Positions 17,965 to 18,551 are shown, counted from the stretch's first letter. The stretch: 21,251 nucleotides of DNA from Escherichia coli (GCF_003334255.1 NZ_QOWU01000069.1); one strand, 5' to 3'. Numbers and translations: made by a program. Notes: generated by a model not told the origin, from the sequence alone.

Positions 17965-17982
17965 TATATACTGTGTATATAC
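17965..17982. promoter_or_regulatory. Inverted repeat, candidate operator of the toxin-antitoxin promoter
   Basis: TATATAC-TGT-GTATATA: 7-bp inverted arms with a 3-bp spacer, about 20 bp upstream of the antitoxin start; GAGGTGA ribosome-binding site follows. Confidence 0.3.
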
Positions 17983-18003
17983 GTAGTAATGACGAGGTGA
18001 TAA

Positions 18004-18273
18004 ATGACACAGGTTAACATGAGTTTAAGAATCGACGCTGAACTGAAGGATGCTTTTATGGCCGCTGCAAAAAGCATGGACCGTAATGGCTCTCAGTTAA
18101 TCCGGGATTTTATGCGCCAGACCGTTGAACGGCAGCATAATACCTGGTTCCGTGACCAGGTTGAGGCAGGACGTCAGCAACTCGGGCGCGGCGATGTGCT
18201 TTCCCATGACATGGTCGAATCTTCCGCTGCTGCATGGCGGGATGAAATGAGCAGGAAGGTCGCCGGTAAATGA
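18004..18273 (+). CDS. Type II antitoxin, ribbon-helix-helix (ParD/CopG-like)
   Basis: 89 aa; N-terminal MSLRIDAELKDAFMAAAK…GSQLIRDFMRQ fits an RHH DNA-binding fold; stop overlaps the start of the downstream toxin gene (ATGATGG). Confidence 0.7.
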   Translation: MTQVNMSLRIDAELKDAFMAAAKSMDRNGSQLIRDFMRQTVERQHNTWFRDQVEAGRQQLGRGDVLSHDMVESSAAAWRDEMSRKVAGK

Positions 18274-18551
18274 TGGAGATATTCTGGACCATGCTGGCCA
18301 GCCAGGACCGGAAGCGCATTCGTGAGTACATTGCGGAGCAGAACCTGATGGCCGCCATTGAACTGGACGAACGAATTGGTTATTCAGCCAGCAGCCTGGC
18401 TGGGCAGCCGTATAAAGGCCGCAACGGTCGTGTGGAAGGTACCCGGGAACTGGTTATTCACCCGCATTTTGTTCTGGTTTATGAGGTCGACAGCCAGTGG
18501 GGAAAAGTGTATATCCTGCGCGTGTTGCATACTGCACAGAAGTGGCCATAG
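18270..18551 (+). CDS. Type II toxin, ParE/RelE-superfamily
   Basis: 93 aa; size, basic character and gene order (antitoxin then overlapping toxin) fit ParE-like toxins; C-terminal region …GKVYILRVLHTAQKW. Confidence 0.7.
   Translation: MMEIFWTMLASQDRKRIREYIAEQNLMAAIELDERIGYSASSLAGQPYKGRNGRVEGTRELVIHPHFVLVYEVDSQWGKVYILRVLHTAQKWP

Follow-up and report, generated by a model that had tools for sequence, protein, structure and literature searches.

[quoted passage not shown] The PaaR2-PaaA2-ParE2 system of Escherichia coli O157:H7 has three components, namely, a small antitoxin, PaaA2, that does not bind DNA, a separate regulator, and the toxin. The ParDE-I system of the IncI1 plasmid pJIE512b, whose toxin has YacB among its names in GenBank, was characterized by Kamruzzaman and Iredell (2019, PMC6614396). 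When parDE-I carried its own upstream region, derivatives of pACYC184 and pBCSK+ were fully retained in the absence of selection. ParE-I, once induced, inhibited growth and reduced the number of viable cells; ParD-I supplied in trans neutralized ParE-I, and a C-terminally truncated ParE-I was harmless. ParE-I also caused an SOS response and elongated cells resembling those treated with ciprofloxacin, and the parDE-I operon was induced by ciprofloxacin, by gentamicin, and at 42 °C (PMC6614396). Antibiotic and heat tolerance are reportedly raised by this reference allele. ParE-I is about 15-21% identical to the ParE proteins of RK2, Caulobacter, and Vibrio, and gyrase as its target was predicted only (PMC6614396). 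The homologue in Shigella flexneri pINV/pWR100 is inactive and its yacB is frameshifted (PMC9455713, PMC7354431), and because of this the presence of yacAB does not guarantee function.

The window, which is the whole stretch of 21,251 nucleotides of E. coli DNA that was analysed, carries a pair of small genes that had been described beforehand, from the sequence, as a ParD/ParE-like TA module. Over its full length the window is 100% identical to NZ_CP060058.1 (positions 9909-31159). NZ_CP060058.1 is an IncK2/Z plasmid of E. coli G8 and came from faeces of a healthy individual in Germany, and RefSeq annotates the two genes there as 'type II toxin-antitoxin system antitoxin YacA' (WP_012605119.1) and 'toxin YacB' (WP_001384452.1). 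Compared with the IncI1 plasmid ColIb-P9 (NC_002122), in which the yac genes adjoin repA, protein identity is 98% for YacA and 99% for YacB with no gaps, the substitutions being T2A and S67P (YacA) and E19K (YacB). Thus the description of the pair was correct, and the locus is the known yacAB, a type II TA module of the ParDE/RelBE type. Its identity with ParDE-I (pJIE512b, HG970648) was established through the leader in the supplement of that paper and through ColIb-P9. The pJIE512b leader is printed as ...ATCCTGGTGACGATATCTGAATCGTTATATACTGTGTATATACGTAGTAATGACGAGGTGATAAATGGCA (Fig. S4, PMC6614396; duplicates from text extraction were allowed for), and it is the same as the ColIb-P9 leader and as the window between TATCTGAAT (17953) and the start codon. 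Since the three leaders agree from 17953, the locus is yacAB and also ParDE-I. The length of parE-I, 282 bp (PMC6614396), is that of the 93-aa form of the toxin plus a stop codon and is the same in the window. We put at roughly 0.9 the probability that this is an intact copy of ParDE-I, a type II TA operon that belongs to the backbone of I-complex plasmids (IncI1/IncK/IncB/O/Z) and of IncF plasmids, working by the mechanism proposed below. The features of the locus are collected in Table 1.

Table 1. Features of the yacAB locus and its flanks (positions counted from the first nucleotide of the window)
Feature	Position	Strand	Basis
Serine-recombinase (resolvase) pseudogene fragment without the N-terminal catalytic part	17539-17895	+	Pfam Resolvase, HTH_7
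Backbone block yacA-yacB-yacC' shared with IncI1/IncF plasmids	17953-18744	+	Megablast, alignments
Perfect 7-3-7 inverted repeat TATATAC-TGT-GTATATA, candidate YacA operator	17965-17981	.	Repeat search; identical in ColIb-P9 and pWR100
TATACT, best -10-like hexamer, within the left arm of the inverted repeat	17967-17972	+	Reading of the sequence
Shine-Dalgarno-like GAGGTG for yacA	17994-17999	+	4 nt 5' of the ATG
yacA (parD-I), antitoxin, 89 aa, ATG start	18004-18273	+	ORF call, RefSeq WP_012605119.1, ColIb-P9 98%
yacB (parE-I), ParE-like toxin, 93 aa, ATG start	18270-18551	+	ORF call, RefSeq WP_001384452.1, ColIb-P9 99%
yacC (3'-5' exonuclease) remnant, 71-aa ORF	18586-18801	+	First 53 codons homologous, ending at ~18744; rest unrelated
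38-bp Tn3-family terminal inverted repeat GGGGTCCGCTTGGAAAACGGAAAATATCCCACGCTAAG (GGGG...ACGCTAAG), transposon end	19499-19536	.	Sequence reading
Truncated Tn3-family transposase, C-terminal half	19532-20896	-	NF033527, model 542-953 of 954

The locus is an already known one and an ordinary find. As a discovery it has small weight, for it has a name in RefSeq, is common in E. coli, and has been characterized by experiment. A 701-bp query around the module matched 2,327 PLSDB plasmids by megablast, mostly conjugative ones of Escherichia, Salmonella, and Shigella, and about a quarter of the complete E. coli genomes (1,457 of 5,426) have it, the module being plasmid-borne at 1,992 of 2,022 places. 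The window shares with ColIb-P9 YacAB and pJIE512b ParDE-I (PMC6614396) the leader from 17953 with its repeat, TATACT, and ribosome-binding site, and with ColIb-P9 also the gene order, the ATGA overlap, and the start of yacC downstream. It differs from ColIb-P9 in the region 5' of 17953, which in the window is continuous with the resolvase remnant but in ColIb-P9 is close to repA and contains the predicted -35, in yacC, which is cut after 53 codons, in the three substitutions, and in its host, which is IncK2/Z and not IncI1.

The two ORFs overlap by 4 bp, as had been claimed, in the sequence ATGA, with the ATG of the toxin at 18270-18272 and the TGA of the antitoxin at 18271-18273. In RefSeq yacB begins with the second ATG (18273), so that the toxin has 92 aa and the overlap is 1 bp; an AGGAAGG 5' of yacB is 10 nt away from the first of these ATGs and 13 nt away from the second. 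The good ribosome-binding site that had been noted in front of yacA is indeed there, and the same GAGGTG is labelled RBS in Fig. S4 of PMC6614396. Two small, co-oriented, overlapping genes with the antitoxin first and with its own ribosome-binding site are the layout of a type II TA operon. The pWR100 yacAB has 93% nucleotide identity to the window over the first 490 bp and an identical inverted repeat, but there yacA alone is annotated and yacB is disrupted by the frameshift, whereas in the window both ORFs are intact.

YacB matched Pfam ParE_toxin (PF05016) at 4.7e-17 over residues 4-92, covering positions 1-89 of the 89 in the model, and it passed NCBIfam TIGR02385 RelE_StbE with 31.8 bits, the cut-off being 27.9. 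Since these profiles cover the whole RelE/ParE superfamily, their names cannot split ParE from RelE. The database names 'mRNA interferase RelE/StbE' would make YacB a RelE-type ribosome-dependent mRNA endonuclease, and the passed TIGR02385 model and the likeness of the antitoxin N-terminus to RelB/DinJ agree with these names. RelE and HigB were also listed first when an AlphaFold2 model of YacB, which has helices and then four strands (mean pLDDT 62.9, 3-sequence alignment), was compared with the PDB by Foldseek, but none was found at E <=0.001, and such low-confidence models and the Foldseek results from them were given no weight in the verdict. In contrast, the PDB sequence search found E. 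coli O157 ParE2 (5cw7) as the only significant solved relative, at 3.5e-8, followed by a marginal match to a Mesorhizobium ParE (5ceg), and there was no RelE chain among the matches at E up to 1. Pairwise, YacB and ParE2 are 31% identical end to end (8e-15), whereas BLASTP of YacB against K-12 RelE gave no alignment. A three-way alignment, which is approximate at such distance, leaves a gap opposite the C-terminal stretch of RelE with R81 and Y87, and the R81/Y87 segment is also absent from ParE-I (PMC6614396). The SOS response and ciprofloxacin-like filamentation brought about by the reference toxin (PMC6614396) likewise speak against an mRNA endonuclease, and we consider this reading very improbable. 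K-12 RelBE has the same operon layout, and the YacA N-terminus aligns to RelB, but YacB has neither detectable pairwise similarity to RelE nor its C-terminal catalytic segment. By these sequence comparisons YacB is a ParE-like toxin, in keeping with the earlier designation of the 93-aa protein as ParE/RelE-like.

YacB and ParE2 of the O157:H7 PaaR2-PaaA2-ParE2 system (5cw7, 5cze) have in common a C-terminal H-x-x-x-x-(W/F)-P motif, but yacAB has two components, its antitoxin having its own RHH-like domain, in place of three. The ParDE systems of RK2, Caulobacter, and Vibrio resemble yacAB in having the antitoxin gene first, in plasmid or replicon stabilization, and in SOS and filamentation (PMC6614396), and also in pairing an RHH antitoxin with a toxin of the RelE/ParE fold, both being putative for YacA and YacB; no structure from them was among the PDB sequence matches at E up to 1. 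The ParE toxins of these systems are classical gyrase poisons, whereas for YacB the action on gyrase is predicted. ParE2 reportedly does not bind GyrA59 and does not inhibit gyrase (PMC10886550), and because of this the SOS response and filamentation could stem from another target or from another mode of engaging gyrase. That YacB is not a classical GyrA-binding gyrase poison and, separately, that the IncK2/Z lineage uses a promoter other than the predicted one is, in our judgement, unlikely. If true, a very widespread plasmid toxin would have a different target or would engage gyrase differently.

The YacA N-terminus resembles an RHH domain less clearly. Its matches to Pfam RHH_1 (E 0.021) and RelB (E 0.048) are weak and sub-threshold, and that to TIGR02384 RelB_DinJ (E 1.9e-5, 24.8 bits) is below the cut-off of 45.65. 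Pairwise, the N-terminus aligned to the RHH strand and helix of K-12 RelB with 12 identities in 30 positions (E 6e-4), and the motif SLRID...NGSQ fits the RHH pattern by eye. Sequence and profile searches of the PDB gave marginal matches to CopG and DinJ, with profile E values above 0.1, and an AlphaFold2 monomer had a pLDDT of 59.4 and no strand (4-sequence alignment). These results are consistent with a putative RHH domain, although weakly so, and the resemblance to RelB is weak.

The inverted repeat upstream of yacA is perfect, as the preliminary description had it. Its right half belongs to the palindrome GTATATAC, and an imperfect palindrome at 17969-17988 overlaps it. Perfect repeats with 7-nt arms and a spacer of <=10 have 18 distinct centres in the window compared with 12.4 +/- 3.5 in shuffled sequences. 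Because perfect 7-nt dyads are common in the window, the one at 17965-17981 is unremarkable as a repeat, and its weight comes from its position and its conservation. TATACT and the dyad are unchanged in the alignment with ColIb-P9 and pWR100, and a transcription start about 7 nt 3' of TATACT would land in the right arm of the dyad. In a divergent yacAB copy on a Salmonella IncFII plasmid, with 83% nucleotide identity and an unrelated upstream flank, TATACT is kept, and the promoter scan called TGGAAA-16-TATACT. This copy (NZ_CP039474.1, 1499-1516) has an altered left arm and spacer and a perfect 6-6-6 dyad, CGTATA-N6-TATACG. The dyad may have been remodelled as operator and antitoxin co-varied, the antitoxin being 87% identical.

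It is possible, though we would not favour it, that the repeat arose as a side effect of two TATA-type runs in an AT-rich promoter, and that autoregulation, if any, goes through another site. TATATA is self-complementary and so two such runs always form a dyad, two further perfect 7-nt dyads lie within coding sequence, at 18142 and 18385, and the Salmonella copy has a different left arm. However, a given stretch of 60 bp is expected to hold about 0.05 perfect dyads of 7 nt (spacer <=10), this one lies over the -10-like hexamer and the likely start, where type II operators are usually found, and the Salmonella copy, with arm and spacer altered, still forms a perfect dyad. The RHH-like N-terminus of the antitoxin points the same way, dyads being among the sites that RHH dimers bind. 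Thus a conserved dyad over TATACT plausibly fits a candidate operator that overlaps the promoter and to which YacA would bind; in the literature consulted we found no report of YacA binding to the repeat.

The leader up to 17953 is where the window departs from the reference. Homology to the IncI1/IncF copies, those of ColIb-P9, pJIE512b, and pWR100 among them, begins at 17953 (query position 54 in megablast, and the alignments agree), and the sequence beyond 17953 and 18744 differs from ColIb-P9; the coverage of another plasmid also ends at 18744. The predicted -35 of ParDE-I is GTGACG (Fig. S4, PMC6614396), which lies just 5' of the 17953 breakpoint, and in the window AACCCC is there instead. 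The consensus promoter scan found no sigma-70 promoter 5' of yacA in the window, and no hexamer with a match of 4/6 or better lies 16-18 nt upstream of TATACT. The negative scan proves little because the same scan found none 5' of yacA in ColIb-P9 either, and the near-identical pJIE512b allele works from its own upstream region. No Rfam match for a structured RNA was found in the yacAB leader. The upstream junction and the proteins are found again, at 99.9%, in at least six plasmids of differing size, and the junction is shared by pECOED and at least four other plasmids.

The resolvase fragment matches positions 82-144 of 145 of the Pfam Resolvase model (E 1.4e-10), with a weak HTH_7 match in addition, and its frame ends at 17895; the PLSDB gene table, from which pseudogenes are left out, does not list it. 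Downstream, the yacC remnant has 52 of 53 identities to residues 1-53 of the 282-aa exonuclease of ColIb-P9, an intact hexapeptide acyltransferase gene lies between this remnant and the transposon end, and the homology common to other plasmids ends at 19500. The placing of the module between a truncated resolvase and a transposon end was therefore essentially right, the remnant and the Tn3-family end both being there, but that account left out the yacC remnant and the acyltransferase gene.

These flanks, a 0.8-kb block amid the truncated genes resolvase', yacC', and tnpA', could mean that yacAB is present but silent or decaying in the IncK2/Z lineage, a passenger fragment of I-complex backbone that would no longer confer addiction. 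The homology to the reference leader that starts only at 17953, with the predicted -35 replaced, the lack of a promoter-like site 5' of yacA in the scan, and the precedent of an inactive yacAB in pWR100 (PMC9455713, PMC7354431) would agree with this. Nevertheless, both ORFs are full length and the toxin spans the whole Pfam model, TATACT, dyad, and ribosome-binding site are intact, and the junction and the proteins are maintained in those plasmids of different sizes. The upstream frame could supply read-through, and the scan is just as negative for ColIb-P9. We consider a silent or decaying yacAB improbable and prefer an intact and probably working ParDE-I operon.

The toxicity, rescue, and stabilization data are those of the pJIE512b allele, and the allele in the window is known here from its sequence; the mechanism that we propose for it is worded accordingly. 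The sequence shows yacA and yacB to be arranged for co-transcription and, via the ATGA overlap, for translational coupling. YacA would neutralize YacB by direct binding, as rescue in trans of the pJIE512b allele suggests, and YacA, alone or with YacB, probably represses the operon through an RHH domain placed on the dyad over TATACT and the likely start. When the plasmid is lost the labile antitoxin would decay, and free YacB would then cause DNA damage, SOS, filamentation, and growth arrest, phenotypes taken from the reference allele. Membership in the ParE family suggests that gyrase poisoning may be the cause of the damage. The net result would be that the whole plasmid is stabilized, cargo included. 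We also considered a role in anti-phage defence and rejected it, as neither YacA nor YacB matched a PADLOC family at E up to 0.01.

The module had been expected to stabilize the mobile segment or plasmid and so to help retain the adjacent biosynthetic island. Plasmid addiction stands, on the strength of the reference allele, but a specific tie to the island does not, the module being backbone of thousands of plasmids. There is no specific link between yacAB and the island because the module is on thousands of IncI/IncK/IncF plasmids, whereas only two near-identical PLSDB records, NZ_CP060058.1 and NZ_CP060062.1, cover at least 80% of the window. By analogy with the reference allele yacAB would stabilize the entire plasmid, from which the island would gain only as cargo. 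In practical terms the host plasmid, rare biosynthetic cargo included, probably has a functional addiction system that makes its loss less likely.

The island is a plasmid-borne biosynthetic/export cluster at ~1970-13170 (+). It contains genes for an SDR oxidoreductase, an acyl carrier protein, a beta-ketoacyl-synthase-like protein, a PfkB kinase, and a crotonase, and further for an ABC transporter with an FtsX-like permease, a LolA-like lipoprotein-sorting protein, and several hypothetical proteins. At 691-767 (-) there is a match to the group II catalytic intron RF00029 in Rfam (41.8 bits, gathering score 40), which suggests a group II intron or its remnant near the window start. A gene of the ProQ/FinO family at 16498-17115 (+) has a run of lysine codons, GRKKKKKKKNNG, at ~16700 in a long A-rich tract, a possible slippage-prone site. 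Near the other end of the window a copy of IS30 starts at ~21237, according to the matching record.
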